From a virus (Duplodnaviria; Caudoviricetes): a stretch of 64,000 nucleotides of DNA. The translations under genes and the position numbers were made by a program. The notes under the pieces were generated by a model that saw only the letters and a program-made list of their open reading frames with translations, was not told the DNA's origin and searched no databases. The stretch is taken from positions 195,975 to 259,974 of the IMG/VR virus record IMGVR_UViG_3300031993_000006; one strand, written 5' to 3'. Shown here in pieces: positions 26,862 through 63,650 of the stretch; position 1 is the first letter of the stretch, and every line of letters begins with the position of its first letter.

Positions 26862-27006
26862 CTCATTTCGTTGATGGATTCAATATGTCCCTAGAGTGTC
26901 CCCCCGTGGCTCCCCATGGGAAAACCCGATGAGTTACCTGGGCTGCTGACGGGCGGAAACAGAAACGGAGGCCGGGTGGCCTCCGTCTAGATTCGGTATA
27001 GCTTTG

Positions 27007-27516
27007 TTATTCGATACCGATTTCGGGGCCGATAACAAAGTGTCCGTTAGGGAGTTCCTTGGCGTACATGTAGTGCCGGTACACATATTCGAGCGTTGGC
27101 GGCTCATATTCGCCGGTTTCGCTATTGAAGAGGTCGTCATCATGTTCTACGGCGGCGAGGAGTTCCGCTTCGGTATCGTATTCGTAGAACGAACTGTCAA
27201 GCGAGACGGCCATTGCATAAGCATCGCGCATATCTTCATCGTCAGGACGGGTGCTGATGATGTAGTCTGCCGCTTCCGGGGTGAAGCCGTGGGTATCGAT
27301 AAGGAGTTGCGTGACGATAATGTGGGAGAGTACCCTAGCGGCGAACCTGCGGGCTTCCGGGGAGACCTTCATGTAGTCCGGGATGTAGCGGATGGGCATA
27401 TCCTTGAACTGTATTGCCGGTTCTTCGCGGTCTTCGTGCTTTTCTGGGATAGGGATTCGGCGGATTGTAGCTACTCTCGATTCGGGTACATATACCTTGA
27501 GTTCTTGTTCAGCCAT
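27007..27516 (-). CDS. Hypothetical protein
   Basis: GGAGG RBS before MAEQELK. Confidence 0.7.
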   Translation of the reverse strand: MAEQELKVYVPESRVATIRRIPIPEKHEDREEPAIQFKDMPIRYIPDYMKVSPEARRFAARVLSHIIVTQLLIDTHGFTPEAADYIISTRPDDEDMRDAYAMAVSLDSSFYEYDTEAELLAAVEHDDDLFNSETGEYEPPTLEYVYRHYMYAKELPNGHFVIGPEIGIE

Positions 27517-27517
27517 C

Positions 27518-28006
27518 TTATGCCTCCAGTTCGGCGCCAAGTTCCTTGGCGACCTGTTCGAGTGTTTTGTTTTCGCGTTTGGCCTCGCGGGTAGCCATCG
27601 CGGTGAATTTTTTGTTGAGGATGCTGACCACTTTGTTGCAGTCTGCTTCGGACACAAAGTACGAGTCCACGAACTTCCTCGCGGGGAACCCGTCGTCCAT
27701 GCTACCGTCGTCCTCTTGGTACACCCACGGGAGAAATCCGGCGGGCGGAACGCTGTCCTTGATAAGCTTGGTGACTTCGGGTTGCCTGATGCTGGAGCAG
27801 TTAAGTTTGTCTGCAATCCATTCATTAGACAAATATTCCCCGTCAGGATTTGTAATCGCGAAAATCTTGTTGGAGAGTACGGAATTGTCTATTGTGTAGG
27901 GCTTGATACTTTTACCGTAACCCATAACTTCAAGTTTCGTCTTTCCCTTGAAAGGGGTTTGTCCGCGGGCAATGCTTTTGGCGTGGAAGAAAATTAATTT
28001 TGCCAT
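27518..28006 (-). CDS. Hypothetical protein
   Basis: GAGGT RBS. Confidence 0.7.
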   Translation of the reverse strand: MAKLIFFHAKSIARGQTPFKGKTKLEVMGYGKSIKPYTIDNSVLSNKIFAITNPDGEYLSNEWIADKLNCSSIRQPEVTKLIKDSVPPAGFLPWVYQEDDGSMDDGFPARKFVDSYFVSEADCNKVVSILNKKFTAMATREAKRENKTLEQVAKELGAELEA

Positions 28007-28009
28007 TGG

Positions 28010-28600
28010 TTACCTCATTCCGAAAATGGTGAAAATCGTGTGCAGACGGTTGATGGTTTCGGATGCTTCGTCCCCGGAGAACCTAGCCTCCTCGGCATCG
28101 TCGTTGGCCGACCCGCACTTGTCTTTTGCCGTACGGTTGGAAGCCTGGGTTTCCCCGGTGTCCCCGAGAGTGGTTTCGAGGTCTTCAAAATCATCGTAGT
28201 TCCTATCTTGGCTTGTCGTATAGTGGGTGACGAGCGCCTTGGTGACCCGGGCGACTTCCCGGAGTTCTTCGATGGTGAGCCTAGATGCGTCGAGCTGTTC
28301 CTGTGTCATTACTGATTCGGGGAACTGCTTGCGGTAGGCGTCGAGGTCGTCTACGGCAATGAACTTGTGGCCTCGGACTCCCGGGGTTCCCCAAATGGGG
28401 CAGCAGAAAAGCTCCAGCTTGTCCTCGGTGAGCGCGTTCAATGCTTCCTCGCGGGCGAGCAGGATAGTGTACTCGTGCAGTTCCTCGACGGTCATTGCAT
28501 CGAGTGCGTACTTGAGTCCTTTCTCTGCGGCCCTTTCGGAAACCTGCTTGTTGATTTTCCACATGCGGTCCTTGACTTCGCCGTGCGACATCATTTCCAT
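28010..28600 (-). CDS. Hypothetical protein
   Basis: AAGGAG RBS after repeat. Confidence 0.7.
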   Translation of the reverse strand: MEMMSHGEVKDRMWKINKQVSERAAEKGLKYALDAMTVEELHEYTILLAREEALNALTEDKLELFCCPIWGTPGVRGHKFIAVDDLDAYRKQFPESVMTQEQLDASRLTIEELREVARVTKALVTHYTTSQDRNYDDFEDLETTLGDTGETQASNRTAKDKCGSANDDAEEARFSGDEASETINRLHTIFTIFGMR

Positions 28601-28685
28601 ATTTCAAAGCTCCTTTCGTTGCATCACCTGTATATCCCCGTGGGAAGCCCCCGTGGCCCCCCATGAGGAATCCGGGTAGTCCAAT

Positions 28686-29219
28686 CTAGATTTCCCTGCG
28701 GGTCAGGTCGTATTCGCATTCCGGTTTCTTTCGCCACCACCTATAGTTGTAGATGCACATTAGCATCAGTAGTACCAGTGCCGCGATACCCATCGCGACA
28801 AGGAATCCGAATAGGTTGCTGTCCCCGACATCTTGTTTAGATAACGCGATTACGACCGCAAGTGCTACCAGTTCAAAGATAGTAAGAATGGCGAGTGTGT
28901 GCTTGCGGTAGAACAGGCCGAATGCCTTGAGGAAGCGGTATTTGAGGCTCGGGCGGTCTTCTTGATTGGTGAATACTTCACGGGGCTTGTCCTCGTTGTC
29001 GAACTTGATGATGAAGCGCGGGAACTGACCGCCTCGGCCATAATGACAGTCACGGGAAAGTCTATCGATGATTTCGTCGGCGCCTTCGAGATTTTCCTTC
29101 TCCCTTCCCCAGCATTGCGGGTTGAGACTGGCCGAGATATCGCCGCGCCACACGAGGCTTTCACAAATGATAAGGTATTCTACATTTTTCCAAGTGGTGG
29201 GCATAGTGTACTGTGACAT
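28686..29219 (-). CDS. Hypothetical membrane protein (2 TM)
   Basis: Two C-terminal hydrophobic helices; native RBS split by the tnpB element. Confidence 0.7.
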   Translation of the reverse strand: MSQYTMPTTWKNVEYLIICESLVWRGDISASLNPQCWGREKENLEGADEIIDRLSRDCHYGRGGQFPRFIIKFDNEDKPREVFTNQEDRPSLKYRFLKAFGLFYRKHTLAILTIFELVALAVVIALSKQDVGDSNLFGFLVAMGIAALVLLMLMCIYNYRWWRKKPECEYDLTRREI

Positions 29220-29226
29220 ATCTAGT

Positions 29227-30775
29227 CTGCCTCATAAAATGTATATAAAAGTATAGACAGAAATGCCTATATCTTAAATATAGCAATTTACGGTCGCGTG
29301 AGCGACTTGGTTCCATAGGCGATTAAAGAAATCGTCCACCATTGCCGCCCTACCATATCTGGTAAGTAAGCAATGAGCATCATTCTCGGTAGTTTCACTA
29401 CACCCCGAAAGGGATGTAGCCAGAGCTTCCAAGTCCGCTGGCGTGAATTTCCGACGGGCAATGTCGGTATTGAATCTCTTATTTAGTTCGATGAACAAGG
29501 CTTCCGCAAGGATGTTGATTGCTGCGTTGGTATCACGGTCGATAGCCAGTCCGCATTCCTCGCAGATGAACTCTCGTTCGGACAATGAAAGTTTTTCTTT
29601 CACATGTCCACAACCGGAACATTTCTTCGAAGACGGGAAGAACCGCCCGACTTTCAAAAGCAATGTTCCATACTTGGCACTCTTGTATTCTAGGAATCTA
29701 CGAATCATGCCGAATCCGCAGTCCGAAATGGCAGACGCCAACTTGTGGTTGGACACCATGCCCTTGACATTCAAGTCCTCTATGGCGACAACCATATTGT
29801 GCTTGACTATCTCTGTCGTCGCCTTGTGTATCAAGTCCTTACGGTAGTTCTTGATATAGGCATTCTTCTTGTCAAAAGTCTTCTTGATATCCTTGTAATG
29901 CACTGAATTATACTTTCGGCGGGACATCATTTTTTGATATCGTTTAAGACGCTTGTAATGCTGTTTGATGATATGCTCGTTGGCGACGCATTCGCCTGTC
30001 GATAACTGCATCAGCGTCTTAACACCCATATCTATACCAACGATACCGTTATCGTCCGTTCCATACAAACTATTTGTATCATCATAAGTATAGGATATCG
30101 AAATATACCAATGGTCGTTGCTTCCCTTGGATACAACGAAGTTGTTTATCTTACCGGATAGACACTCCGGCCGTACTGGCTCCGCCAGTCTAACCGGTGT
30201 CTTGATTAACGGTAACTTGATATGAGTAGAATCGATAAGCCTAGCCTTGTCGTTCTCTATGTAGAATGCGCGCTTTGACTTGTATTTCTTCCGCTTGGGA
30301 AAACCGAACAGTTCCGGATTCTCGTAATGCCGTTTCTTGGCAAGTACGAAGTTCTTAATTGCCTGGTCCATAGAGCCTTTAGGACTCTCGTACATCCAGC
30401 CAACCTTCTGTGCATTGAACTCCTTGCGAAGTCCCGCGCACGTCACTGATTCTTGCCCAGCAGCCTTCTTGGCAAACCAGGTATCCCTAGCCCAGTTGTA
30501 TGCATAGCGAGCACAACCGCATGCGCGGTTCAACGCGCTTGCCGTCTTGCTGTCGACTGTCAACATTATCTTTTGGGCTGTACTTATCATACATATAGGA
30601 AATGCCCCGAAGACACTTAGTGTAGGATTTAGCATCTCCAGGGCATCTAAACTCTTTTTCGCATTGAAGAAATCCTACTAACTTCAATTTATACATAAGT
30701 TTATATAATTGCAGATTTATTTTATCGATATCTTCCTATACATTTATATATGAAATTATGTACTAGATACCATCT
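29227..30775 (-). mobile_element. Non-autonomous tnpB-only IS607-like element
   Basis: Low-GC block bounded by AG at both ends (AAGGAG|ATGGT ... TATACATTTTATGAGGCAG|ACTAG); removing it restores an RBS-ATG. Confidence 0.8.
29274..30635 (-). CDS. tnpB: TnpB RNA-guided endonuclease (start possibly 30590)
   Basis: GCARYAYNW, GIDMGV (RuvC-I), IEDLNV (RuvC-II), FPSSKKCSGC..CEEC zinc finger, DRDTNAAINI (RuvC-III). Confidence 0.95.
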   Translation of the reverse strand: MLNPTLSVFGAFPICMISTAQKIMLTVDSKTASALNRACGCARYAYNWARDTWFAKKAAGQESVTCAGLRKEFNAQKVGWMYESPKGSMDQAIKNFVLAKKRHYENPELFGFPKRKKYKSKRAFYIENDKARLIDSTHIKLPLIKTPVRLAEPVRPECLSGKINNFVVSKGSNDHWYISISYTYDDTNSLYGTDDNGIVGIDMGVKTLMQLSTGECVANEHIIKQHYKRLKRYQKMMSRRKYNSVHYKDIKKTFDKKNAYIKNYRKDLIHKATTEIVKHNMVVAIEDLNVKGMVSNHKLASAISDCGFGMIRRFLEYKSAKYGTLLLKVGRFFPSSKKCSGCGHVKEKLSLSEREFICEECGLAIDRDTNAAINILAEALFIELNKRFNTDIARRKFTPADLEALATSLSGCSETTENDAHCLLTRYGRAAMVDDFFNRLWNQVAHATVNCYI

Positions 30776-30856
30776 CCTTGTTTCTTTACATAGGGGTTAT
30801 GCCCCCGTTGCGACCTCCCGTGGCCCCCCATGGAGAACCCGGGTAACCCGATGGGG

Positions 30857-31897
30857 CTAAACGATGTAGTCCACGGCGTCGGCGGTAACTGTACCCTTTC
30901 GGCGGTATGCGTAGTGGGCTTTGATAAGCACGGTCTTTCCGCGCATTCGGGCGTAGTGGGCGCGGACTAGCCAGCTCGGGACTGTAAAGTTCTTTTGCTC
31001 CCTGACGGCTGTGGATGCGCTCTCGTACTTCGCCCAAGTTTCATCCGTGATGTGGATGTACCGGTAGGCTTGCGAGTGCTTCATCGGCTTCTTTCCTGCG
31101 AGGATAACAGGGCGGTCTGTCGCATGGCGCACGGTCTCCGGCTCCATGCAGACCTCGCAGGTCTTCAGGTTCTCGGCAATCCAAAGGTTCGTGAGGAATC
31201 CCTCGGAGTCGAACACATTGCCCGTGGAGGCGTTGTCGTACTGCTCGTCATAGTCACGGGTAGCCCCGAGCAGTTCCCTTTCGCGGAACTCCTTGATGAC
31301 GGGAATGTTCATGTATTCGTTGAGTCCGCTTCTCGGGTCCCGCCTGTGGATGACATGACACATTTCGGTGGATGCGATAAGGTAGAGGTATTCGGTTCTC
31401 CCGTTGATGGGGAGTTCGAGCATTTCCTCGTAGAACTGTCCACCCGCAAGCCCATCGACAATCTCGAACGGGCGCTCGGTAGCCATACTGCACAAATGAG
31501 CACGATATTCTACGCGGAGTTCGTCAGTCGGCGCACCGAGCGAGAGGAGGAACTTCGTAGCTCTTTCGGATAGCTTTCGGTACTTGCACCCGTCGCCCGG
31601 GTAGATACAGGAGTCGGCAAGGTATTCGTTGATGGGGCAACCGAAAGCGCCCTCAAGGTCGAACTTCTGTCCGATGCGTTCTAGGGCCGCGATGGTCACC
31701 GGGAGGACTTTCAGTCTGCGCTTCTTGTGGAGAGTCTTTCCGTCCAGCAGGGACTTCACGATGGGGTTCGTCTCGGAGCTATGCCCGATGGTGCTGTCGA
31801 TTTGCTTATCGACAAGCGCGTTGCACCCGAAAACGATGGGGTTCACGGGGACTTCAACTTTCTTTGTAATCTTTATCGGCTTCTTGTGCTTTGACAT
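30857..31897 (-). CDS. Hypothetical protein with C-terminal WLVRAHY motif
   Basis: 346 aa ORF; VRxH motif. Confidence 0.75.
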   Translation of the reverse strand: MSKHKKPIKITKKVEVPVNPIVFGCNALVDKQIDSTIGHSSETNPIVKSLLDGKTLHKKRRLKVLPVTIAALERIGQKFDLEGAFGCPINEYLADSCIYPGDGCKYRKLSERATKFLLSLGAPTDELRVEYRAHLCSMATERPFEIVDGLAGGQFYEEMLELPINGRTEYLYLIASTEMCHVIHRRDPRSGLNEYMNIPVIKEFRERELLGATRDYDEQYDNASTGNVFDSEGFLTNLWIAENLKTCEVCMEPETVRHATDRPVILAGKKPMKHSQAYRYIHITDETWAKYESASTAVREQKNFTVPSWLVRAHYARMRGKTVLIKAHYAYRRKGTVTADAVDYIV

Positions 31898-31904
31898 ATT
31901 TTAC

Positions 31905-32417
31905 CTACCTATGAGCGAGCTTGTATTGCAAGTCCTTGATTAGTCGTGTGCGGACATTCTCGATATCCTGTGGATTGAAGTCTGCTTTGAATGGTTCGAG
32001 GATTCTGTCGATATCGGCTATCGTCCAAGCTTTCTTGAACTCCTGTTGGAACCAAAAATGTTCGTAGAGCTGGACGAGCGTCGGGTTCTCGGTATGGGTG
32101 ACTCGGACGATGGCGGTATTTTTTTCGAGCCAATCCCATGCGTCACACGGGAGCCACCCGTTCACCGTCATGTGTTCAAGGTAGATGACAAGGTAATGGT
32201 TATTCTTGTCGAACTTGAGAAGATAGTCGTTGATATCTTTAGTGGTAATGTTGCCGGGGCATAACACGATGAAGATGCCCGGCATATAGTTCCACCAGCT
32301 CTCGAACATCTGCTTGTTGTTGACGATGTGTGCTTTGGCTTTTTCGAGGAAAAATTCGCGGGAACCCCGTTTAATCTCAACGGCGATAAGAAACATATTA
32401 CGCGGTTGCATCTTCAT
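31905..32417 (-). CDS. Hypothetical protein
   Basis: WWNYMPGIFIV...NGWLP..AWDWL. Confidence 0.7.
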   Translation of the reverse strand: MKMQPRNMFLIAVEIKRGSREFFLEKAKAHIVNNKQMFESWWNYMPGIFIVLCPGNITTKDINDYLLKFDKNNHYLVIYLEHMTVNGWLPCDAWDWLEKNTAIVRVTHTENPTLVQLYEHFWFQQEFKKAWTIADIDRILEPFKADFNPQDIENVRTRLIKDLQYKLAHR

Positions 32418-32440
32418 AGTTGGCTCCTGAAAGTAAAAAA

Positions 32441-33115: not shown

Positions 33116-33206
33116 GTTGATAACTCCTTTAAGTGGTCGGTTTCTTGACACTAACTGTATAGCTCCAAAGCGTCCTCCCGTGGCTCCCTATGAGGAACCC
33201 AGGTAA

Positions 33207-33641: not shown

Positions 33642-33721
33642 TTTGTAGCTCCATTGGATGAAAGTTCTGTGTACCGGGTATGCCCCGGGAGCAACCGCCC
33701 GTGGCTCCCCATGGGAAAACC

Positions 33722-34345
33722 CTATGGGGCGTCCTCGTCCACGGTGAAGTTGGTCGCGAAACCATCGTGGCAATATCCGAACTTGTTGGAGAGCCAATCG
33801 CTGATTTCTTCGCCGGAGGTCATTCCGAACGGGAGAATTACGGAGCCACGCGGGAGGCCACAGTCGGCATAGGTGGCACCGTCGGTGTCCCACTTGATTC
33901 CGTAGGCGGTATGCGGTTTTACCTTGACGAAATTGACCGCGTGACGCATCAAGAACAGTTCATGGTCGCCATCACGGGATTCCATAAAGGGGGCGCCTGT
34001 CTGCTTCAGTTCGTCGAGGTCGCTCTTCAGTTCGCTACGCAGGCGGGAGTCGAGCTTCTTGAGCTGGTGCTTCTTCCATTTGCTCCAAAAGTCGAGGAAC
34101 TTCGATGACTCTTCGTGGTCGAGAAAACCGGAGTTCATCGTGAGCGCTTCGATGTGGCAATCGGCGGTGCCGACTGCGATGCCGCGCATGATTCCCTTGT
34201 GGTTGGGATAGTGGATGTTGGCTTCGATATCGAATACCGGGGTTTTACCATCGTTGTGACGGTAGTAGCTGACCTGAAAGGTCACATCCTTTCCGCAATG
34301 GAAGAGAACTTGAAATTCGTTCTTGCTTGTGTCGATGTTTGCCAT
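33722..34345 (-). CDS. Hypothetical protein
   Basis: AGGAG RBS after repeat. Confidence 0.7.
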   Translation of the reverse strand: MANIDTSKNEFQVLFHCGKDVTFQVSYYRHNDGKTPVFDIEANIHYPNHKGIMRGIAVGTADCHIEALTMNSGFLDHEESSKFLDFWSKWKKHQLKKLDSRLRSELKSDLDELKQTGAPFMESRDGDHELFLMRHAVNFVKVKPHTAYGIKWDTDGATYADCGLPRGSVILPFGMTSGEEISDWLSNKFGYCHDGFATNFTVDEDAP

Positions 34346-34509
34346 AATGATATCTCCTGTTTTCTTTCTGTATCGCGTATAGCCCCGAAGTTCCCTCCCG
34401 TGGCGCCCCATGGGGAATCCGGGTAGCTACGATGGGGTGACCCGGGCGGAAGGCGAAGAAAAACGCCCCGGGAAAATCCCGGAGCGTAACGGAGGGCTAA
34501 AAGTATGTA

Positions 34510-35381: not shown

Positions 35382-35427
35382 TGGTTTCTCCTTAAAAAAA
35401 TTATTCTATCGCAAAGATAGCAAAAAA

Positions 35428-35967: not shown

Positions 35968-36057
35968 AGCGTTAGCTCCTTTGTTTCTTGGTTTCTTTAC
36001 ATACGGGTTATACCCCGGGAGCGCCCTCTCGTGGCGCCTCATGGGGAATCCGGGTAG

Positions 36058-37118: not shown

Positions 37119-37303
37119 AATAGCCTCCTAGCTCTGTTTGATGTATTCCCTGATATTCATTTCGGCATCCTGTCTTGCCTTACCTGTTATTCCCCGGGAG
37201 CGGACTCCCGTGGCGCCCCATGGGGAAACCCCGTGGGCTACACGGGGAAATCGTGGGTCAATCCGTTTTTGCGCGGGGCTACCTACCGTTGTATTTGCGG
37301 CGG

Positions 37304-37699: not shown

Positions 37700-37872
37700 G
37701 GTTACACCCCCGGCTAGTCGTAGTTGTCGTGTTCGACGATGGCCCTGTGGCCGAAGCTCTTGCTGAATGCAGTAATTTTCATTCTAGGCCTCCTTGCCTC
37801 TTGAGTTTCTTTCCTGTTTCCATATAGTCCCAAAGGAGCCGCCCGTGGCGCCCCATGGGGAAACCCCGTGGG

Positions 37873-39024: not shown

Positions 39025-39109
39025 TATAGGCCTCCTTGCCTGTTGATTTCCTTTCCACTCCCCGTATATCCCCGAAGGAGCCTCCCGTGGCTCCCCATGG
39101 GGCTACCCG

Positions 39110-39538
39110 CTAGAACGATATGCGCCTGATTCGCTCGAACGGGACAATCATCCGGCGGTACCCGTCCTTGAATGTCTTTCTCCCGTAGTAAGCCTGCTTC
39201 ATTTTCCCGTAATCGTCCGCGTACCACCCGGACAGCACGGGCTTGCTACCGTAACTGCACCCATTGTCCTGCTTGTAGACGCTGTTCTTGCTTACCACGA
39301 GGTACCCGTCGAACACATCTATCCTGTCGAGGTAGTCGCTAGGCTTCTTGCCCTCGCTCTTGATTACCTGACGGAGCGCGTTGTAGTCGTCGTTCTCGAA
39401 CAGGGCGCTCTCCCCGAGAACCACATCTAGGGTCTCAAGTCCGCATACCCCCGACTCCCCGTCGATGGCTATCGCGCACTTGCCGATTCCGTACTTCTTT
39501 ATCTGCTCCACCATGGAGACTACTGATGACTTCTTCAT
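39110..39538 (-). CDS. Hypothetical protein
   Basis: AAGGAG RBS. Confidence 0.7.
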   Translation of the reverse strand: MKKSSVVSMVEQIKKYGIGKCAIAIDGESGVCGLETLDVVLGESALFENDDYNALRQVIKSEGKKPSDYLDRIDVFDGYLVVSKNSVYKQDNGCSYGSKPVLSGWYADDYGKMKQAYYGRKTFKDGYRRMIVPFERIRRISF

Positions 39539-39865: not shown

Positions 39866-39961
39866 ATTCGGCCTCCCTGCATTAAGTGATTTTCCTTTCC
39901 TCTACCCATATACCCCCATAGGCTCTCCCCGTGGCTCCCCATGGGCTACCCGGGTAATATC

Positions 39962-40324: not shown

Positions 40325-40419
40325 ATAAGCCTCCTGCGGCAATCAAAAATTTTCCTTTCCTATCCCCATATACCCCTATAGGCTCTCCCCGTGGCTCCCC
40401 ATGGGATTCCCGGGTAACC

Positions 40420-41112: not shown

Positions 41113-41199
41113 GTATGCCTCCCAGCAAATAAAAGTTTTACCTGTTTCCTCCAACCATATACCCACATAGCGTCCACCCGTAGCCCCCCATGGTCTACC

Positions 41200-41970
41200 C
41201 GGGTAACTCCATAGGGCAAACAGGGGAGATACTTCAGACTGATATACGGGAGCTACACGGGGGAACCCATCGGGCGAATACATAGGGAACCCATAGGAGA
41301 AACCATAGGGAACCCATAGGAGCCAATAGGGAGAAAACAAAAAATAAAAAATAAAAATCCCCCATAGCCACGGAATCCACAGAAACGGCCACGGGAGCCA
41401 TCGCAGATACGGACCCTCCCCTCTATACCCTAGAACCACCGCAGGGGCTACGCGCCCCGTTTCCCGGCTCCCTGCAAGGGGTACTCCCCCGAAGGTACCC
41501 CACCCCGTCCACGAACACCCCCTCGCACGGGCGAACACGGGGTGCCACGGGGGAGGACCTACGGGGTACTATGGGGCCACCTGTGCGGATGTGCAGGGGG
41601 TCTGCCCGGATGTGCAGTGGGGCTAACTCGGGGGTTAGGGGGGTTAAACCCGTGTTCAACGACAGGTTCATCCCGCGCTTCCCCAAAAGCTCAACCCGAG
41701 TTAGCTCCGTCTAACAACCCGTGTGTCCCCCAAGTGTCCCCCAAGTGTCCCCCAAGTGGCTCCCGACCGCCGAGGGGAATTAGCCGGGGCTAAGTGGGTG
41801 AACAGGTGTGCAGTACGGAGGGGCTACTGAGGAGAACCGGACGGGGCCACGCATGGCGCCCCATGGAGCTACCCGGTGGGGAACATATAGGAACCGTGGG
41901 ACAGCCGGATGCGTTTTTGGAACAGGGACTTTGAAAAATAAAAAATAACCCCTGGCCGGGGAGGGCAGGG
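41200..41970. other. Non-coding region with short tandem repeats; candidate replication origin
   Basis: CATAGG-type repeats 41281-41336, A-tracts, (GTGTCCCCCAA)x3 at 41723-41758, C-rich to G-rich switch near 41530. Confidence 0.5.
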
Positions 41971-41976
41971 GCGCTA

Positions 41977-42264
41977 CCGTTAGCTGAAACCTACTTAAAT
42001 CTACCAAGAGATAGACCTATGTGATTTCCTACCTTGCTCATTGCGGAGTAGGCTGTAACGGTACTTAATCAACCGTATCTACGCGATATACCTAATATGC
42101 ATCAAGCGACACGGCTAATTTACCTAATCCTACTTCCTTGCGGAAGAGCCTTAACACGGTCGGCATATCAAACTAGGCATTTTTAAATATACGTTATTTC
42201 CATTAGCAGATTTAAGTATATTTAGTTAAATTTTGTTAACATTTTTGTTAACTGCTATCAACCC
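41977..42264 (-). mobile_element. ORF-less IS607-like miniature element with structured RNA, copy 2
   Basis: Reverse-complement homolog of 2825-3122. Confidence 0.7.
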
Positions 42265-42299: not shown

Positions 42300-42527
42300 C
42301 TATTCGTCTTCCTCGGGGTCTAAGTCTACGGACTCCACGGTGTCCAAGGAGTCGATTCCGTAATACGAGGCGGTGTCGCGGTCGTTCTTGAGGATGACGG
42401 TATCGTTGTCCGTGATGCCCTCGTTTTCGAGCTTCGCCTTGAGCTTGCCCCAGGAGATACCCGAGACATCCGCCGGGCTGTACCCGTTGGACCCCATGTT
42501 GATGATGAATGCGGTCTTTCTTGCCAT
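42300..42527 (-). CDS. Hypothetical protein
   Basis: AAGGAG RBS. Confidence 0.65.
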   Translation of the reverse strand: MARKTAFIINMGSNGYSPADVSGISWGKLKAKLENEGITDNDTVILKNDRDTASYYGIDSLDTVESVDLDPEEDE

Positions 42528-43505: not shown

Positions 43506-43618
43506 ATTGTTGTCTCCTTTATGATTGATTAAAGATTTTTTGTTGTAGCCCCCGAGGGGCAAGACGGGTATGCCCCCGAGGTATCTCCGCGTGGCTCCCC
43601 ATGGGGAACCGGGGTGGG

Positions 43619-44059: not shown

Positions 44060-44161
44060 AATGAGTTAGCTCCTTTAAGTTTCAGGTTAGGCGCCCCGAG
44101 GGGCATCCGTGGTATATCCCGGGTGGCTCCTCCCGTGGCGCCCCATGGGTAACCCGGGTGG

Positions 44162-45273: not shown

Positions 45274-45454
45274 AGGTCTAGCTCCTGTTTCGCCCCGGGT
45301 ATCTCCCGGGTGGACCCGCCCGTAGCCCCTCATGGAGCTACCCGGTGGGAGATATAGCGACCGGTCGGGAGCAGGCGGACGCCGGGGCGAACAAGAAACC
45401 CCCCGGGGGCTAACCCGGGGGCAAGGAGGCCAACTGTTATGACGCAGATTGAAA

Positions 45455-47319: not shown

Positions 47320-47412
47320 AATGGTAGCTCCTTTGGATGGTTAGGCGGGTCCGCCCGTGGTATCTCCCGGGTAGCACCGCCCGTGGCTCCCCATGGGGAA
47401 CCGGGTGGGTTA

Positions 47413-47805: not shown

Positions 47806-47961
47806 TGATAACTCCTTTGGTTTCCAAGCGTGGTATCCCCCGGGTGGCGCCTCCCGTGGCTCCCCATGGGGAAACGGGTGGGTTACTGTGGATGGTTAAG
47901 GTTATGTGTCGTCAGTGTTCTTGTATGTGCACTCGATGACCGCTTGCTTCATATAGTTTCC

Positions 47962-48378: not shown

Positions 48379-48556
48379 GATGCTATCTCCGTTTGATATG
48401 CCGTCTATGTGAAGGGAAGTACACCCCCGTGGGCGCTACCCGTGACTAGTTCCGCCAGTGGTATTACCCGGGTGGGTCCGCCCGTGGCTCCCCATGGGGA
48501 ACCGGGTGGTACATAGGGAGGCGCTGTATGTTCCCGGGCGGACGGCGGGGTAAAGG

Positions 48557-49174: not shown

Positions 49175-49303
49175 AAGATAGCTCCTTTGAAGTGGTAGAG
49201 GTTCTTCCTGTCCTCCGTATAGCCCCGGAAGGGGCGCCTGTGGCGTCCCATGGGGAACCCGGGTAGCCTACTGGTGGGCTACGGGGGTGATTATCGAGAA
49301 TAA

Positions 49304-50312: not shown

Positions 50313-50793
50313 AGATATTGCCTCCATTGGTTCAACCCCGGTATCTCCCGTGTAGCCCCGCCCGTAGCCCCCCATGAGGCTACCCGGTGGACTATATGGA
50401 TGCACGCCGGTTGCGCCCGGGATGCCGGTAGCGAAAATGGAAAGCCCCCGGGGAGTACCGGGGGCTTGCTGATTGGAACCTATGGATATTTTAAAAAATT
50501 ATTTCAGATAGCGGAAGCGTTGAACTTGGTGAGAATCATAGATGCTCCTTTGATAGATTAAAACAGTTCCCCGTGGAGACCCGTGCCAATTTGTGTGTGA
50601 GTGTTGCGGTAGGGCCACCACGGGGCGCCGGGCAGGGAGTCCCGGCTTCTTCCATATACATTATTCCCCGGGTAGCTCCGCCCGTAGCCCCCCATGGGCT
50701 ACCCGGGTGGACTACGGGGGGATTCCATGCGCCCGGCCGGGATTCGCATGCTTCAGACATGCAAAAAGGGGGCGCCTGCGGCGCCCCCTGGAG

Positions 50794-52149: not shown

Positions 52150-52259
52150 AGATACTCCTTTGTTTTTACTGATATGACCCCACGGGTTGCTCCCGTGGCG
52201 CCCCATGTGCAACCGGGTGGGTGTTTTAAATGGTTCGGTGGAAACGACATTAAACATCC

Positions 52260-52511: not shown

Positions 52512-52585
52512 ATTTGTATCCTTTGTTTTACCCGATATGGCCCCACGGGTTGCTCCTGTGGCGCTCCATGTGTGACCGGGTGGAC

Positions 52586-53587: not shown

Positions 53588-53797
53588 ATGTATTCCTTTG
53601 CGGGGACTTGGTGCCTCCCGCATATACCATATAGCTCCATAGGGAGCGCCCGTGGCTCCCCATGAGGGGCCAGGTGGGTGCCATAGGGAGACCGGCGGAG
53701 AGTCTGAAGGCGGGCAGTCCCACTCGTGCTACTGCCGTCATAATCAGAAAGGGAGGCGCCTTCGGCGCCTCCCTTGGAGCTATCTATGGTGAAAAAT

Positions 53798-54052: not shown

Positions 54053-54078
54053 ATTAGCTGTCTCACTAAAGTTAAAAA

Positions 54079-54216: not shown

Positions 54217-54243
54217 AGTGTTACTCCTTTAAAAAAATAAAAA

Positions 54244-55137: not shown

Positions 55138-55496
55138 AGACTTATGCTCCTTTGGGCTATTGCTTGCCCACTATACATATAGCCCCTATAGGCGCCCCCG
55201 TAGCCCCCCATGAGCTACACGGGTGGTTACTGTGGGTACATGCGGGCGCCTGCCAGCCGACATGCTTCAGCCAGCCCGAGGAGGCACAAAAAACGCCCCA
55301 CGGGGGAACCCGTGGAGCTATCCGGTAGGAGCAGTGAATTACGCTTCGTCTAAAGACAATGCGCTTCGCGTTAATCCCGGAGGGACGCCCGCGCCTTTAA
55401 CCCCGTTTTCCGAGGCGAGTACCTTGCGATACACTAATAGTTTAGAAAATGTTCACCTCATTTGTCAAGTGGTTTTTATCTTTGTTCTATAAATCC

Positions 55497-56768: not shown

Positions 56769-56975
56769 AGATTTATGCTCCTTTGGGCTTCATTGCCCAT
56801 TACCTATATGTACCCGATTAGCTCCCCCGTGGCTCCCCATGAGGCTCCGGGTGGGTGCCATAGAAAGACCGGCGGAGGAGTCTGAAGCAGCAGGCTGCCC
56901 GCCGGTGGGCAATAAAACGGAGAAGCCCCACGGTGTTACCCGTGGAGCCTCTAGGTAGGACACAAAAATTAAAAA

Positions 56976-57776: not shown

Positions 57777-57868
57777 AGATTACTCCTTTGGGCTTCTTTG
57801 CCCAAATACCGTATAGCCCCACGGGGAACGCCCGTGGCGCCCCATGAGGAACCGGGTAGAATACCCCG

Positions 57869-58375
57869 CTATTCGGCGACCTTTACGGCGTCTTCGAAGG
57901 ATACCACGAGTTTAAGACCGAACTCTTCGGCTTTCTTTGCCATTTCGTTCCAAAACGGATGGAACTTTTCGAGATTCGAGACCTTTACCGTGTGGTAGCC
58001 GTTCTCGTCCAACGCTACATCGTCCCAAGTGTCCATAAATTCGGCGGGTCCGTCATCGAAGATTTCTCCCTCTTCGATGTAGCCTACGGACACTCTGTCG
58101 ATGTCCTCACGCTCGTCCCCCTCCCTGATGTACTTATACGGGAGTTCGGTGTTTTCGTTTTCGCTAGTGAGCGCCTGCATAATGTTCTTTGCCACGCCTT
58201 CGGAATTTTCGTCCCAAGTATGCCGAATGGCTTCAAAGAAGTATGTATCGCCCGTGGGTGAAACCTTGATGGCGTCAAAGGGTTGAACGTCCTTTGCGGT
58301 AGTATTGAGGACTTTAAAAATTTTCTCGGCAATCCCCTTGCAAGCGAGAATGTAGACGTTGCTTCGGTATGACAT
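57869..58375 (-). CDS. Hypothetical phage protein (MxYRSxV N-terminus)
   Basis: MSYRSNVYI...YIREGDE..D. Confidence 0.7.
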   Translation of the reverse strand: MSYRSNVYILACKGIAEKIFKVLNTTAKDVQPFDAIKVSPTGDTYFFEAIRHTWDENSEGVAKNIMQALTSENENTELPYKYIREGDEREDIDRVSVGYIEEGEIFDDGPAEFMDTWDDVALDENGYHTVKVSNLEKFHPFWNEMAKKAEEFGLKLVVSFEDAVKVAE

Positions 58376-58395
58376 AGGTTAAGCTCCTTTAAAAA

Positions 58396-58797
58396 TTAAA
58401 ATTTCACCCGTTGGGATTGGCACTTGCCGAACAGCTCAAGCGCATCGCACAGCTCCTCCTCGGTAGCTCCATCGGCTTCTCCGATGCGGTTCATGAACGA
58501 CCCGTTGGAGGTTACACACTCGTAGAGGTTGGCGTGGTAGTAAGGGTCTGCGTTCAGGGGGAGGCACCAAGAGAGCCTGACGTTCTGCCCGTCCGTAGTG
58601 GTGAAGCGGGCGATAAGGTCGATTCCGCCCTCGGGGTCTACCTGAAGCATCACGGACTCGTCGCCCTCGAAGTCGCAGTAGTCGTACGGCTTGTGGTGCG
58701 TACAGCCCGGAAAGAGGGTGTCGATGGTGGAAATGAAAGTGTCACGCACCTCCTGCAAGTGGGCGAGGTGGCGGTTGATTCTTGAGATATATGCCAT
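58396..58797 (-). CDS. Hypothetical protein
   Basis: AGGAG RBS after repeat. Confidence 0.7.
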   Translation of the reverse strand: MAYISRINRHLAHLQEVRDTFISTIDTLFPGCTHHKPYDYCDFEGDESVMLQVDPEGGIDLIARFTTTDGQNVRLSWCLPLNADPYYHANLYECVTSNGSFMNRIGEADGATEEELCDALELFGKCQSQRVKF

Positions 58798-58987
58798 AGG
58801 TTGCTCCTGCGGGGGTTAATGAGGTGTTCCCGCACAGGCGGTATATCCCCCTCGGAGCTCCCCGTGGCTCCTCATGGGAAACCGGGTGGGCGCCATAGGG
58901 TGTTCTGGGGGTTCCAGTCCCCACCGGGGAAACAGGAAGCCCCACCGTGGTTACCGGCGGGGCTACAGGAGGGAGCAATTAAATTTT

Positions 58988-59350
58988 TTAGAGGTAGGGC
59001 GCCTGCAACTCCTCGATGTTGCCGAACGGGAGGAACGATACACTACGACCGCTCACGCCCGTCTTGACGGATACTTCACGCTCGCCATCTGCGAGCCTTT
59101 CAACATATCTGTCGTCCGTGGAAGTACCCTCGATGGAGAGGTAATGGTGTTCATTAAGGGCAACCGCAATGAACTTCCCGTCATCTTCCTCGTGGCAAAC
59201 CCAATTACCGCCCTGAATGGAGTCGAAAGTTCTCGGCATAATCTGTACGCCCTTGCTGTCTGCCTGGCGGAGCATATCGTCACAAGAGATTTCCCCTGCG
59301 AAAGCACTTACCGCCAATGCGACAATCAAAATAATTTTATTCATCTTCAA
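58988..59350 (-). CDS. Hypothetical secreted protein
   Basis: Signal peptide NKIILIVALAVSAFA. Confidence 0.7.
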   Translation of the reverse strand: MKMNKIILIVALAVSAFAGEISCDDMLRQADSKGVQIMPRTFDSIQGGNWVCHEEDDGKFIAVALNEHHYLSIEGTSTDDRYVERLADGEREVSVKTGVSGRSVSFLPFGNIEELQAPYL

Positions 59351-59613
59351 TCCTTTTGAAATGTAAATAAAAGTTTATCCTAAAATGACCGACCAAAGAT
59401 AACAAAAATTTTCTTTATTGTCAATCCCTTGGGCTATTTTCTTGCCCATTACCTATATAACCCCGATTAGCTCCCCCGTAGCCCCCCATGAGAATCCCGG
59501 TAGCTCCCGTAGTTGTCGCTGGGGAATCCCGGGGACAGCAGTCCTCCTCCCGGGGAAAAGGAAAACGGACGACCCTTGCGAGCCGCCCGTTCAGGAGCAA
59601 TTAAAAAATATTT

Positions 59614-60261
59614 CTAGATAGCCGTGTAGTTGAACTGGTTAGCCCCGTCAGCGAAGCCCACGAGAATCCACTCGTCACTCTTGCCGACCATAAGACCGAA
59701 CATATCGTCTGCGTTCTCGACATTGAAGAAAATTTTCTCGTCATCGGCACCTACTCCGAGACCCATCTTCATAGTGACATTCTCAAGGCGGTCCTCGTCA
59801 CGCCACAGAATCACGGCATTGAATCGGGTTTCGGGCTGAATCTTCTTAATCTGCTCGGCAAGTTCCTTAAACTTGATGGTCTTTGCCTCGTAGTCATTGA
59901 AATCGACAAGGATATGACCCTCCCCGCTTCTCGGGTCAGTCAGCCTGCAAAGGTGGTGACCGGAGCAGAAGAAGTCCACTTCGTCATCTTCGGTTCCCTC
60001 TTCGTAGCCGTCATCGAACTTGATTTTGATGTCATAGCTTGTGCCATCGGGTTCCATTACCGTGCAAGAGCTGTACAGGTCATCGGGGTCGCTTTCGAGG
60101 CGCTTGTCGATTTCCTTGCCGAGCGTTTCCAAGTCCTGATTGACGAGGTAATCCTTATAGGAAAAGATGAAGAAGCGTTTGGACTCAATGACAATTCCGT
60201 TGATGTCATGAATCATCTGCTTGATGGTATCAAATTTTTTGAGAGCTTTCTTGGTTTCCAT
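59614..60261 (-). CDS. Hypothetical protein
   Basis: ORF after repeat; terminator at ~59564. Confidence 0.7.
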   Translation of the reverse strand: METKKALKKFDTIKQMIHDINGIVIESKRFFIFSYKDYLVNQDLETLGKEIDKRLESDPDDLYSSCTVMEPDGTSYDIKIKFDDGYEEGTEDDEVDFFCSGHHLCRLTDPRSGEGHILVDFNDYEAKTIKFKELAEQIKKIQPETRFNAVILWRDEDRLENVTMKMGLGVGADDEKIFFNVENADDMFGLMVGKSDEWILVGFADGANQFNYTAI

Positions 60262-60462
60262 AGTAACTGCCTTATTATTTGCGGAGGGCAACATCGCCCG
60301 CCTATACCAATATAGCCCCCTCGTAGCTCCCCGTGGCTCCCCATGAGCTACCGGGTGACTCCCATAGGGTTACTGTGGGCTGCCCGGCGGAGGCTCGCCG
60401 AATCCCGGAAAATAAAAACGGGCGACTCGTGCGAGCCACCCGTTCAGGGAGCAATTAAAAAA

Positions 60463-60813
60463 TTATCTTTCTAACCCCAAGAGCTTTGCCGTCTCGTGGC
60501 GCTTTTCTTCGATTACCCCCGCCCACCAATCAGGGACATCGGTAACCTTGCTGTCCCCGTTTGCATATACGGCGGTTACTTCTATTCCGAGAGGAGCCGA
60601 GGCGAGGAAATCTTCGGTATCTTCAGACTTGCGCTTGCGACCAAGCTCGTCGAAGTCCTTGAAGTCCACTTCAGCGGGGACTACATCGACCGCTCCCGCA
60701 TCGCTACCCGTGTTCACCACGAGCTTGCAACCCGCCTGTGCGAGAAGCTTCTTTCCGAACTCGAACGACTCCCGTGCGAGCTTGATGATTTCATATCTTT
60801 CCTTTGGACTCAT
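60463..60813 (-). CDS. Hypothetical protein
   Basis: ATGA coupling with upstream ORF. Confidence 0.65.
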   Translation of the reverse strand: MSPKERYEIIKLARESFEFGKKLLAQAGCKLVVNTGSDAGAVDVVPAEVDFKDFDELGRKRKSEDTEDFLASAPLGIEVTAVYANGDSKVTDVPDWWAGVIEEKRHETAKLLGLER

Positions 60814-60995
60814 ATTGTGCCTACCTTTTTTAATCTTTCGGTTAATGGACGGAGCAACGCCTCGACTTCGGGCGAACGGCTGTCCCCGAACGACATCGCA
60901 CGGGCTTGCTTGAATACTTCTCTCGAAGCGAGACCACGGGTCTGCCGTAACCTCTTCTGTTCAGCCATAATCTGTTCAATCGTTCTAGGTGCCAT
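60810..60995 (-). CDS. Hypothetical protein
   Basis: AAGGAG RBS after repeat. Confidence 0.6.
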   Translation of the reverse strand: MAPRTIEQIMAEQKRLRQTRGLASREVFKQARAMSFGDSRSPEVEALLRPLTERLKKVGTI

Positions 60996-61152
60996 ATTAT
61001 GCTCCTTTCGGGCGACCACCGCCCGCATATACCTTATAGCCCCGAAGTGCCTCCCCGTAGCCCCCCATGAGCTACCGGGTGACTCCCCGTGGGGAACCTT
61101 CCGGGGAATCCCGCACGGGTCTGCCCGCACGGGAAATTAAATAAAAAATTTT

Positions 61153-61563
61153 TTATGGAAGCTGTAACAGGAACGCCTTTGGCTCCGTCTGCTCCACCGA
61201 GTCGATGAGGTAGTCGATGAGCGCCTTGACGGTATCCTCCATCGTCAGCACCCCCGTAGACCGGTCGATAAGCCCCGTGGTAGCCAATGCGTTGCCGCCG
61301 GGGTATCCGCCTGCGATGATATGGGCGTCTGCCGTATTGAACTGCTGTGCGAGGTCAATTAGCTTATAGCGCCCGCAGCTCTCGTTGAAAGCCTGCTCTT
61401 TCAGCTCGTCCGTATCAAGGTAGAACCATTCATCTTCGCTAGGAATCCCGTCCGTGGCGAAACGGATGTCACCCACGGGCGAGCCGTAATGAACCCGAGT
61501 GAAGATATAGGTGGCGATTTCACAAGCTAGGCTCGTAACATTGTCGAATCGAAAGTATCTCAT
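61153..61563 (-). CDS. Hypothetical protein
   Basis: AAGGAG RBS after repeat. Confidence 0.7.
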   Translation of the reverse strand: MRYFRFDNVTSLACEIATYIFTRVHYGSPVGDIRFATDGIPSEDEWFYLDTDELKEQAFNESCGRYKLIDLAQQFNTADAHIIAGGYPGGNALATTGLIDRSTGVLTMEDTVKALIDYLIDSVEQTEPKAFLLQLP

Positions 61564-61719
61564 AGAATTGCTCCTTTAATACCCGTATAGCCCCATAGGA
61601 GCCTCCCGTGGCTCCCCATGAGTATCCGGGTGAGTTGTACCCCGGGGCTACCCGGGAATCGAAAAATAAAAAATAAAAGGGCGACCCCACGGGCGAACCC
61701 GTGGAATCCCCTGAATGTT

Positions 61720-62337
61720 CTAGAAGAGGTAGAAGTTAACCTTTCTTACATAGCCCTTTGTTTCGAGAAGATGCTTGTGAACATCTCGGTCGAAGCTGTC
61801 CTGCTCCTGCGGGTCGGAGTGACCATTGTTACGCCAATAGCGCAAGCCCTTTTCGGTAAGGATATAGAAAGAATAATAATCCGTGCCATCGTGGTGATAA
61901 TTCTTTGCGTGTAGACCATCTTTGTCGATAAAAATTTTTACCTTGTCGATATGGTTGGCGAACGGGTAAGTGAGCGTATCACGACCCTTGAACTCTACTA
62001 CACGACCGCCCTCCTGCTGTCCACGCCACCCCCCGAAGAAGCCGTGGATAAGCACCATCTTGCCGAAGATGGGGCTATATGGGAGGTTGACCGAGAGGTC
62101 ATCGGCATCGGTTTCGTTCATATCGTGGATAGTATTCCAATATTCTTTGGATTTTTCCACAAGCGGTTCAACGGGTTCCTCATCGCACTCGTGTTGCGCT
62201 TCGTAGTATTCCTTGACATCATCAAATGATGGAATATCCACATCGTTGTAGTATTGGACTTCTTTCTTTCCGTCCTTGTCTGCCGTGATATTGCTCCACT
62301 TGATGCGGGTCTCTTCGGGTTTCTTCTGTTCAGCCAT
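61720..62337 (-). CDS. Hypothetical phage protein
   Basis: GGWRG...HHDGTDYY motif; AAGGAG RBS. Confidence 0.72.
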   Translation of the reverse strand: MAEQKKPEETRIKWSNITADKDGKKEVQYYNDVDIPSFDDVKEYYEAQHECDEEPVEPLVEKSKEYWNTIHDMNETDADDLSVNLPYSPIFGKMVLIHGFFGGWRGQQEGGRVVEFKGRDTLTYPFANHIDKVKIFIDKDGLHAKNYHHDGTDYYSFYILTEKGLRYWRNNGHSDPQEQDSFDRDVHKHLLETKGYVRKVNFYLF

Positions 62338-62534
62338 AAATTGCTCCTTTGGGAATTAAAAATTTTTCCCCGATACCCGTATAGCCCCAAGGTGCCTCCC
62401 CGTGGCTCCCCATGACAATCCGGGTGACTCGCCCTCCCCGATGCTGTCCCCGGGAGTCCCCGGGCTGCCGCGGAGGGTACAAAAAATCCCCCCGCGGGTT
62501 ACACGGGAGGACTCTAGGTAGGTCATTAAAATTT

Positions 62535-62915
62535 TTACCACGGGTGCGATGCGTCATAGGTGGCGAAGCGGTGCTCCCACAGATTCAGCTCGTCATTGTT
62601 GAGATGCTTACCGCCCTTGCAATCGGGAGGGTAGACGAACAGCGTTACGCCACGCCCGTAGATTTCACAGACATATTTGTAGTGACCGCAAATCTGATAG
62701 CCGTTGGGAACATCGGGGAGCGCCTTGCGGACTTCGTAGGTGGTTCCGTTGAACGGCAATCCACGGGTATCTATTACCTCGTATCCTAGCCCTTGAAGAT
62801 GCTTCTCAAGCGCTTCCCAATTAAAAGGCTTTGCGCCCGTTCCGTTCTGTTCCCAATCTGTAAATTCTTCTAGTAACTTTTTGAAGTGTTCGGGATATTT
62901 CTTTTGTTTATCCAT
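62535..62915 (-). CDS. Hypothetical protein
   Basis: AAGGAG RBS after repeat. Confidence 0.7.
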   Translation of the reverse strand: MDKQKKYPEHFKKLLEEFTDWEQNGTGAKPFNWEALEKHLQGLGYEVIDTRGLPFNGTTYEVRKALPDVPNGYQICGHYKYVCEIYGRGVTLFVYPPDCKGGKHLNNDELNLWEHRFATYDASHPW

Positions 62916-63097
62916 AAATTGCTCCTTTGGGAATTAAAAATTTTTCCCAATCCCCGTATAACCCCGATGGGCTCCCCCGTGGCTCCCCATGAGCTACTAG
63001 GTGACCACTCGGGGCTACCTGTGGGGACAGCGGGCAAAAAACAGGAAAGGCGCCCGCATTTGCGAGCGCCCCATTGCGGAGTTCCTCAATGATTACA

Positions 63098-63418
63098 CTA
63101 ACCGAAGATAGGGTCTTCCCCGTGTTCCGCCATATAGGCTTCGAACCTATTTTGGTGCCGCGAGGTCGTGTTCGTCCAATATCCCAAGTTCTTTGTTTTC
63201 GTACCGAACGCCACCGCCACGATAGTAGCATAGCTTTGTAGGCAGACAACCCCGTTTGCCACGTCTTTCACGATATAAGCTGAATTTGCGCCGATTTGAT
63301 GGGGCGTAAGTTCAAGCTGTTTCAGGAATATCCAATGAGGGCATTTAGCATTGTCTGCAAGTTGCTTGCGGTATTCCTCCGTGCGGGACGGATAGCACCA
63401 TTCACATTTCTTTCCCAT
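63098..63418 (-). CDS. Hypothetical phage protein (SYxTxVA...TTSRH pattern)
   Basis: LQSYATIVA...TNTTSRHQ. Confidence 0.72.
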   Translation of the reverse strand: MGKKCEWCYPSRTEEYRKQLADNAKCPHWIFLKQLELTPHQIGANSAYIVKDVANGVVCLQSYATIVAVAFGTKTKNLGYWTNTTSRHQNRFEAYMAEHGEDPIFG

Positions 63419-63650
63419 AGTAATTGCTCCTTATAAAAATTTTTTGACTACCTAAAGGCGAATCCCTCGCCCGAATACAATATACCCCCAAGACGCCACC
63501 CCGTAGCGCCCCATGAGATACCGGGTGCGACCCCGTACCCGAATTCCGATAAAAATTTTAAAAGGGGAAAGCCTTTCGGCTAGTCCCCGATGGACCCGAG
63601 GGGCTACCCGTGGTAACCGCCCGTGCGCCCGTTGCCGTCACGTCCACTGC

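Follow-up and report, generated by a model that had tools for sequence, protein, structure and literature searches.

The window analysed here comprises positions 195975-259974, the last 64 kb of the linear phage record IMGVR_UViG_3300031993_000006 from IMG/VR (259,974 bp), which has an estimated completeness of 91% and represents an uncultured rumen jumbo phage of ~260 kb. Coordinates refer to the window unless they are given as genome positions. Its right-hand part carries an array of small genes in which a GC-rich element of ~50 bp recurs 37 times on the minus strand. This element is probably a promoter of some kind, and we propose, with a probability of roughly 0.5, that it constitutes a phage-specific promoter class read through P0002, a predicted sigma-70-family protein encoded beside the array (22980-23753, minus strand). 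The promoter reading draws on position, orientation, fixed geometry, a layout in which terminators are followed by motif copies, and an architecture shared in six further lineages, all of which fit.

The 37 copies (36 full copies and one relic) lie between positions 26883 and 63529, are all co-oriented with the genes and share the full consensus yCACCCGG-N4/5-CATGGGGnGCYACGGG-N10-GGGGnTATAy. A search for the core CATGGGGNGCYACGGG with at most 2 mismatches returned 41 matches, versus 0.28 expected from shuffled sequences. After removal of an overlapping shift at 60320, an intragenic 2-mismatch match at 42483 and plus-strand matches at 41536 and 45551, 37 minus-strand core matches remained between 26903 and 63515, in agreement with the ~37 co-oriented bipartite elements counted in an initial annotation of this DNA. 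Genome-wide, 33 of the 34 matches with at most 1 core mismatch fall on one strand and all are located within the last 37 kb of the contig; the same search found zero copies in the remaining 222 kb. This confinement to the array bears out the initial annotation, in which no copy was noticed in the first 26 kb of the window.

When the copies are aligned on the core, conservation spans about -14 to +36. The distance from the core to the ATA is free of indels in the aligned copies and the spacer, weakly patterned as nGGnnCCnnc, measures 10 nt in every full copy, which extends to the whole alignment what had been claimed from seven copies. The upstream CACCCGG box occurs in two registers, and this one base before the core is the sole variation in spacing; the N5 gap described initially is found in some copies, whereas others have N4. 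In total, the motif contains ~56 bits of information versus the 13.8 bits that suffice to specify 37 sites in this genome. The relic at 41850 retains a core with 2 mismatches and lacks the 3' half.

All 37 copies are intergenic according to a simple gene call, and several abut the stop codon of the preceding gene. A Shine-Dalgarno sequence and a start codon mostly follow 20-60 nt past the ATA, and each unit comprises 1-3 genes. Strong intrinsic terminators, defined as a stem of 8-13 bp with 7-9 G-C pairs followed by a T-run, occur 11 times on the minus strand and end 37-69 nt upstream of a copy, as expected from the initial description of terminators right before the next element. Canonical sigma-70 sites are no commoner in the array than in shuffles and none is systematically present between terminator and gene. 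The motif is therefore the only conserved initiation candidate for the units that follow a terminator. A single canonical site was identified within a terminator-gene gap (TTGACA-17-TATCTT with an extended TG, 59424-59396, after copy 7), and the unit of copy 7 may have two promoters.

The internal spacing of the element also resembles that of a promoter. Counting positions from the C of CATGGGG, GCYACG (positions 8-13) and TATAYN (positions 31-36) are separated by 17 bp with zero indels in 36 copies, which fits the 16-19 bp between the -35 and -10 elements of sigma-70 promoters. The A equivalent to -11 is near-invariant (36/37 copies), and position 43 is a G in 29 of the 37 copies, preceded by a pyrimidine. 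If position 43 is taken as +1, TATAYN would span -12 to -7 and GCYACG -35 to -30 with a 17-bp spacer, a geometry that would suit a holoenzyme. No TTGACA or TATAAT is present within the motif. In ~13 units, all located within 43-64 kb, a leader hairpin starts at positions 38-44 and resembles a 5'-terminal stabiliser.

The GC-rich motif is one of three promoter-like classes in this phage. The first class is AT-rich and of host type, (t)TTGCTATATTTG, with an extended -10. The genome contains 48 CTATATTT boxes of this class, many preceding a gene start, and the AT-rich promoters initially reported outside the array are thus real. The TAtaTTTG form of this class also agrees with TAnnTTTG, the -7 consensus of Bacteroidota, even though strong Shine-Dalgarno sites are present in this phage. 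The second class is T4-late-like, TATAAACT, with 31 sites in the genome; the third is the array motif.

P0002, which contains regions 2 and 4, is the candidate reader of this third class. In a profile comparison, the family alignment of P0002 and 18 homologues aligned with region 2 (E 4e-7) as well as regions 3-4 of RpoS/SigA, and the Pfam domains Sigma70_r2 or r4 are recognised in some relatives. By these profile matches, P0002 is a true sigma factor, and it is the sole gene of its sigma family in the genome. A separate gp55-like late sigma is predicted from an open reading frame (ORF) at genome positions 135750-136694 (plus strand; L069:5750-6694). The product of this ORF falls into PHROG 234, annotated as 'late sigma transcription factor', with an E value of 1.4e-12 and gives a weak phmmer match with T4 gp55. 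P0002 itself was rejected as a gp55-type late factor: T4 gp55 is unrelated to it (hhalign probability 0.1%). Since the host sigma covers the first class and the gp55-like factor the late class, elimination and linkage make P0002 the natural reader of the GC-rich class. The consensus sequences of sigma-54 (GG-N10-GC) and of sporulation sigma factors, compared by eye, do not fit the motif.

The comparison across lineages is the most informative result. P0002 homologues with 33-94% identity are encoded on phage contigs that range in length from 13 kb to 472 kb, chiefly from cattle-rumen metagenome assemblies (WILK20 samples), and the relatives have a common local order of small genes, p214, an FtsK-like gene, a RadC-like gene and the sigma gene. 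The relative with 94% identity has the same motif. In six more distant lineages, the matching place is taken by a GC-rich repeat of ~47 nt that is particular to the lineage and has the matching orientation, in 4-35 copies, with the copies of the L-series lineages (4-9) counted in 20-kb loci. The repeat reads CACCTGGTnnnGACGGGGGGAG-N21-nATA in L079 (sigma 48% identical to P0002; 8 copies), CCACCGGn-N6-CCGGGGGATGC...ATA in L083 (46%; 9 copies) and CACCGTG-N8-GGGGGGACATCCCGGGAGTTCCGGGTAGCACC in L076 (53%; 7 copies), and L074 (54%; 4 copies) has a related form ending in GGTCGCACA. The two largest arrays belong to G001 (50%), with 35 copies of TAWCGGG-N3-GGGATGGGATGCCCGGGA...TTCCCAT on one strand, and G003 (33%), with 29-30 copies of nACCGTGT-hairpin-GGGGACCTGGGGGAnCATCGT in the 40 kb beside the sigma gene. 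The G001 array is a 27-kb block that stops just short of the sigma module, and zero copies are located elsewhere in its 222-kb record.

In every lineage, a sigma-70-family gene adjoins the array, and in 6/6 lineages compared the p132-p214-FtsK-RadC-sigma operon is headed by the lineage's own spelling. The different spellings have a common register, with a 7-nt 5' box and a G-run ~14-20 nt later. In 6/7 lineages, an A follows the first base of the 5' box at a distance of exactly 44 nt; in L083 it is one base off by hand count. Because the GC-rich signal is respelled per lineage while the spelling of TATAAACT is unchanged among relatives, its copies within a genome have undergone concerted evolution, as those of a promoter class do along with its reader. 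Neither the array DNA nor P0002 has a counterpart among the cultured phages of the GenBank collection, and 12 kb of the array compared with GenBank phages by megablast gave no matches. The exact motif searched in IMG/VR returned 50 single matches and zero arrays, which we took as chance.

In the mechanism that we propose, the host RNA polymerase core together with P0002 would initiate within a few bases past the ATA, around +39 to +43 from the C of CATGGGG, and the motif would drive ~36 short units of 1-3 ORFan genes, many closed by intrinsic terminators. The sigma gene would first be transcribed from an AT-rich host-type promoter, for which a CTATATTT box is located upstream of it (23839-23846, minus strand), and would then be reinforced by read-through from the last motif copy, which heads its operon. 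Transcription would involve three readers, with host sigma-A acting on TTGCTATATTTG, P0002 on the GC-rich motif and the gp55-like factor on TATAAACT. We infer from sequence that initiation occurs at the motif, where exactly it starts and by which factor it is read. With P0002 as the reader, the array genes would be middle or delayed-early genes.

Several observations weigh against this assignment. The T equivalent to -7 is present in just 4/37 copies, and conservation extends beyond the contacts of a sigma factor, with 16 near-invariant bases and a further box at about -55 contributing to the 56 bits. Region 2 is strongly conserved in the sigma family, yet the -10-like box varies by lineage (TATA, CATA, CATCGT, TAGCAC and CCAT). 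The -35-equivalent position is unconserved between lineages and in G003 falls in the loop of a hairpin. This 7-bp hairpin forms the centre of the G003 motif and displays compensatory changes: 79.8% of the cells are paired versus 75.0 +/- 1.4 in shuffles, and 11 double changes were counted versus 4.4 expected, a number reached in 0/500 shuffles. Column permutation gave z = -6.6, and slid controls were at most 59.6% paired. Moreover, the linkage between sigma gene and array is equally expected of a merely co-inherited neighbour, and a polymerase or factor may have escaped detection because the contig is ~91% complete. Given the G003 hairpin, the variable -10-like box and a motif whose extent and information go beyond the sigma footprint, it is possible that an extra factor or a structural step is involved, or that the element has a role at the RNA level.

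The element could thus be a promoter with a reader other than P0002, which we consider rather unlikely. Such a reader would be either sigma-A with a phage activator or sigma-appropriation pair that acts on the GC-rich boxes, or an unrecognised or virion-delivered phage polymerase. GCTATAY is common to the GC-rich class (GGGGCTATAYGG) and the AT-rich host-type class (TTTGCTATATTTG), so one sigma region 2 could serve both, and the combination of lineage-specific upstream boxes with a kept skeleton, as well as the excess of information and length (50 bp) over a sigma footprint, is in line with such a reader. Homologues of the T4 pair MotA and AsiA were however not found in this genome (PF09158 gave just a sub-threshold fragment containing stop codons and PF09010 had no match), and a -10 resembling that of sigma-A is missing from the 3' box of four lineages. 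The HTH_23 protein that is kept near the sigma gene in relatives was not found in this genome either. This alternative would also leave P0002 without a promoter class.

As to a polymerase, the covarying G003 hairpin is reminiscent of the DNA-hairpin promoters of N4, and a cryptic virion enzyme is conceivable among the giant late ORFs (2703, 1691, 1520 and 1486 aa), which have no family assignment. The phage-specific RNA polymerase put forward in the initial annotation was nevertheless not detected by Pfam, DxDGD or T7/N4 motif scans of the genome. PF00562 (multisubunit RNA polymerase) had no match, with positive controls in 14/14 genomes, and PF00940 (single-subunit RNA polymerase) had none, although its control could not respond. 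The scan of long ORFs for NADFDGD-like or DxDGD motifs returned nothing, and the T7/N4 motif series (T/DxxGR, motif B, motif C) is absent from every ORF of at least 450 aa. The five largest ORFs have no informative PHROG, the 2703-aa protein matches neither PHROG nor Pfam, and a 1303-aa ORF encodes the tail sheath. A polymerase-like protein of 515 aa (genome positions 90114-91661, minus strand; L065:12114-13661) has no Pfam or PDB sequence match and belongs to a large unannotated family with 1516 representatives at E<=0.001. Its structural model (pLDDT 90.7) has the fold of a family-A DNA polymerase (DNA polymerase I), and T7 RNA polymerase is absent from the top fold matches; the protein was therefore rejected as the phage RNA polymerase. 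It lacks the exonuclease domain and has HDS instead of HDE in motif C. If a virion-delivered or unrecognised phage polymerase did read the motif, the array would consist of true immediate-early genes.

The element might instead act as RNA within longer transcripts, where a nuclease or RNA-binding protein of phage or host would recognise it as an intercistronic signal for processing, stability or translation, much as RNase III recognises its sites between the early genes of T7. Many copies directly adjoin the stop codon of the gene before them and have no terminator, notably in the 27-44 kb region, and the compensatory changes in the G003 hairpin are what such a role would predict. In the present genome, the copies fold only marginally better than column-permuted pseudo-copies (z = -1.9), whereas the unaligned downstream leaders are clearly structured (z = -3.4). 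Against an RNA element, no in-register helix is present across the 37 copies (among runs of 4 or more paired alignment columns, none reaches complementarity in 70% or more of the copies), the strongest conservation concerns primary sequence outside stems, and Rfam gave no match to the motif. In addition, the 11 copies that follow strong terminators would be kept out of upstream transcripts, and their units have no other promoter. We regard this role as unlikely.

Similarly doubtful is a structure-dependent promoter, in which the CACCnnG box would be brought to a -35-like distance when the ~19 nt in between extrude as a hairpin; either the phage sigma or an injected enzyme that has escaped recognition would read it. 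The G003 motif minus its hairpin reads ACCGTG-17 nt-CATCGT, in which CATCGT is the consensus of the 3' box in 29 copies and ATCGT is invariant in 29/29. If true, a family of T4-like jumbo phages would possess a promoter architecture that is new, with at least 7 naturally orthogonal sigma/promoter spellings.

It is more doubtful still that the copies are an array of sites to which a DNA-binding regulator of the phage attaches, controlling read-through in the manner of a repressor or stoperator, with no initiation at the element. They are indeed in one orientation, intergenic, long, information-rich and present in tens of copies, and the per-lineage spelling is as co-evolution of regulator and operator predicts. 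The terminator-following units would still require a promoter, however, a fixed A/T-containing box and a conserved purine are located at promoter-like distances, and the sigma factor is the only conserved candidate regulator beside the array.

The copies also retain traces of how the array evolved. Where the sequence varies, adjacent copies have an identity of 0.50 versus 0.40 for distant ones (Spearman -0.41, p about 1e-28). This likeness of adjacent copies that head unrelated genes fits local duplication or conversion of promoter-leader modules, with gene swapping at the repeats. It gives indirect support to the recombination handle suggested initially, and the repeats are probably also points of homologous exchange. 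That the repeats chiefly mark the borders at which gene cassettes recombine or move, in the manner of integron attC sites or of PeSLs (promoter-early/stem-loop), with a secondary promoter look, is very improbable, even though neighbouring copies are alike, the headed ORFs are unrelated, array length and gene content vary among relatives and PeSLs have such a role in T4-type phages (PMC2839356, PMC4122927). In this genome the array has no integrase or recombinase beside it, the core FtsK-RadC-sigma operon carries the motif at the orthologous place in 6/6 lineages compared, and the strict spacing to gene starts marks an expression signal of which repeat recombination would be a by-product.

The individual copies, all on the minus strand and delimited from the 5' box to the ATA, are numbered here from the right-hand end of the window. 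Copy 1 is located at 63480-63529, copy 2 at 62956-63005 (upstream terminator 63072-63047), copy 3 at 62379-62428, copy 4 at 61585-61634 (terminator 61708-61683), copy 5 at 61034-61083, copy 6 at 60310-60359 (terminator 60445-60416), copy 7 at 59455-59504 (terminator 59592-59563, with the canonical site mentioned above after the motif), copy 8 at 58841-58890 (terminator 58964-58938) and copy 9 at 57811-57860. Copies 10 and 11 are located at 56806-56855 (terminator 56952-56921) and 55177-55226 (terminator 55318-55295), and copies 12 to 14 at 53629-53678, 52535-52584 and 52172-52221. They are followed by copies 15 (50661-50710; terminator 50789-50767), 16 (50341-50390; terminator 50467-50442) and 17 (49217-49266; 2 core mismatches), by copies 18 to 20 at 48461-48510, 47833-47882 and 47360-47409, by copy 21 at 45299-45348 (terminator 45421-45400) and by copies 22 and 23 at 44112-44161 and 43568-43617. 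The relic spans 41830-41879, lacks the GGGG-TATA half and has no gene directly downstream. Beyond it, copies 25 to 30 are located at 41157-41206, 40368-40417, 39908-39957, 39064-39113, 37822-37871 and 37187-37236, copy 31 at 36008-36057 (2 core mismatches) and copy 32 at 34377-34426 (terminator 34487-34463). Copies 33 to 36 occupy 33678-33727, 33157-33206, 30797-30846 and 28630-28679, and copy 37 (26883-26932) heads the conserved p132-p214-FtsK-RadC-sigma run.

This run, on the minus strand, comprises p132 and p214 (25813-26855), two conserved genes without assigned function, a gene for an FtsK/SpoIIIE-like ATPase (24519-25790; PF01580, E 1e-28) and one for a RadC-like JAB protein (23900-24508; PF04002, E 8e-27), followed by the sigma gene. 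The p214 protein (25813-26457, minus strand) has a hydrophobic N-terminus and six invariant cysteines and is encoded just before the FtsK-like gene in all lineages. Its sequence suggests that it is probably secreted or membrane-anchored, and it was discarded as a transcription co-factor for this reason. Among the array proteins, 54 were scanned against Pfam and PHROG and none received a functional assignment; a search for paralogy among the array genes found none. Because the array products are almost all ORFans, a role of the array in host takeover or anti-defence is a guess.

The array is broken up by a TnpB element (29274-30635, minus strand) and an ORF-free segment (41400-42260). The TnpB protein is an IS605 OrfB with a Cas12f-like TNB domain, and a TATAAACT box is located ~70 nt upstream of its gene, near position 30705. 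Within the ORF-free segment, the non-coding stretch 41560-41800 (minus strand) contains an 11-bp unit repeated 3.3 times at 41723-41758 (GTGTCCCCCAA on the plus strand) and a block, CTGTCGTTGAACACGGGTTTRACCCCCC, that is kept in the relatives L076 and L080 despite their differing array motifs. The GC skew switches sign near 42 kb, and the stretch could be an origin or another control region. A near-complete copy of the motif is present on the opposite strand in the same gene-free region (41536-41551, plus strand; CACGGGGTGCCACGGG-N10-cGGGGtaCTAT) and points at a possible plus-strand ORF of 83 aa (41542-41793). An ORF-free element at ~41960-42205 (minus strand), which follows a TATATTT box (…AAATGCCTAGTTTGATATGCCGACCGTGTTAAGGCTC…) and has a terminator at its end, occurs three times in the genome, the other two copies being at window position ~2907 (plus strand) and genome position ~87597 (minus strand). 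In relatives, long tandem arrays of 10-bp units (TTCCGGGAGRT etc.) are located beside or inside the motif arrays (L083:1540-1720, L076:300-560 and L080:5966-6403).

Among known systems, the PeSL cassettes of T4-type phages are repeated terminator/promoter units at which genes are swapped (PMC2839356, PMC4122927). The present array resembles them in its small composite terminator/promoter units, its tens of repeats and its hyperplastic, ORFan-rich region, and the phage further resembles T4-type phages in its gp55-like late sigma and TATAAATA-like late promoter. Whereas PeSLs contain host sigma-70 early promoters, the array has a 50-bp GC-rich motif without TTGACA/TATAAT that is restricted to one block and respelled per lineage, and its neighbour is the gene for a second phage sigma of full length, to which it is linked. 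The array works like PeSL and sigma-cascade systems but is outside the sigma-70-type PeSL family.

In the sigma cascade of Bacillus phage SPO1, with gp28 and gp33/34, strong sigma-A promoters serve the host-takeover genes, and gp28 acts on short, AT-rich promoters. As in that cascade, a phage sigma-70-family factor would here steer the host core to a private promoter class, and the array shares with the SPO1 host-takeover module a terminal cluster of small genes in short operons with their own promoter and terminator. No sequence relation to P0002 was found within the GenBank phage collection searched. T4 middle promoters combine a MotA box with a sigma-70 -10 and depend on AsiA. They have in common with the GC-rich class a phage-specific box in place of the -35, a kept -10-like TAnnn, tens of copies and, on the proposed reading, a position as third temporal class between host-type and gp55-type promoters. 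They differ in that MotA and AsiA are not found here, and that the box of the GC-rich class has 16 nt, is GC-rich and unrelated in sequence, and is accompanied by a further box at about -55.

The spelling of promoters for single-subunit polymerases co-evolves with their reader. The GC-rich element resembles the T7, T3 and SP6 promoters in its very high information, strict spacing, CTATA before a G-rich start and lineage-specific spelling, and, in G003, the hairpin promoters of the N4 virion polymerase in having a hairpin within the signal. In contrast to the T7 and N4 systems, a polymerase gene was not detected here, and the element has twice the length of a T7 promoter. Stoperators of Cluster A phages are 13-bp repressor sites scattered over the genome, and the start-associated sequence (SAS) of Cluster K mycobacteriophages has 13 bp and overlaps the ribosome-binding site. 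Both stoperators and SAS/ESAS (PMC3203893) are repeated one-orientation intergenic motifs near gene starts, as are the copies of the array, which differ from them in their 50-bp tripartite build, the terminators and the linked sigma gene.

If read as proposed, the motif marks a regulon of ~60 co-regulated ORFan genes, which form a candidate list for host-takeover and anti-defence functions. A three-class programme, with promoters of host type, private sigma type and gp55 type, would be recognisable from sequence without culture. The seven lineages, with one architecture and different spellings beside diverged sigma orthologues, possibly represent orthogonal sigma/promoter pairs. Finally, tens of regulatory sites that evolve together bear on how the hyperplastic regions of large phages grow and are shuffled.

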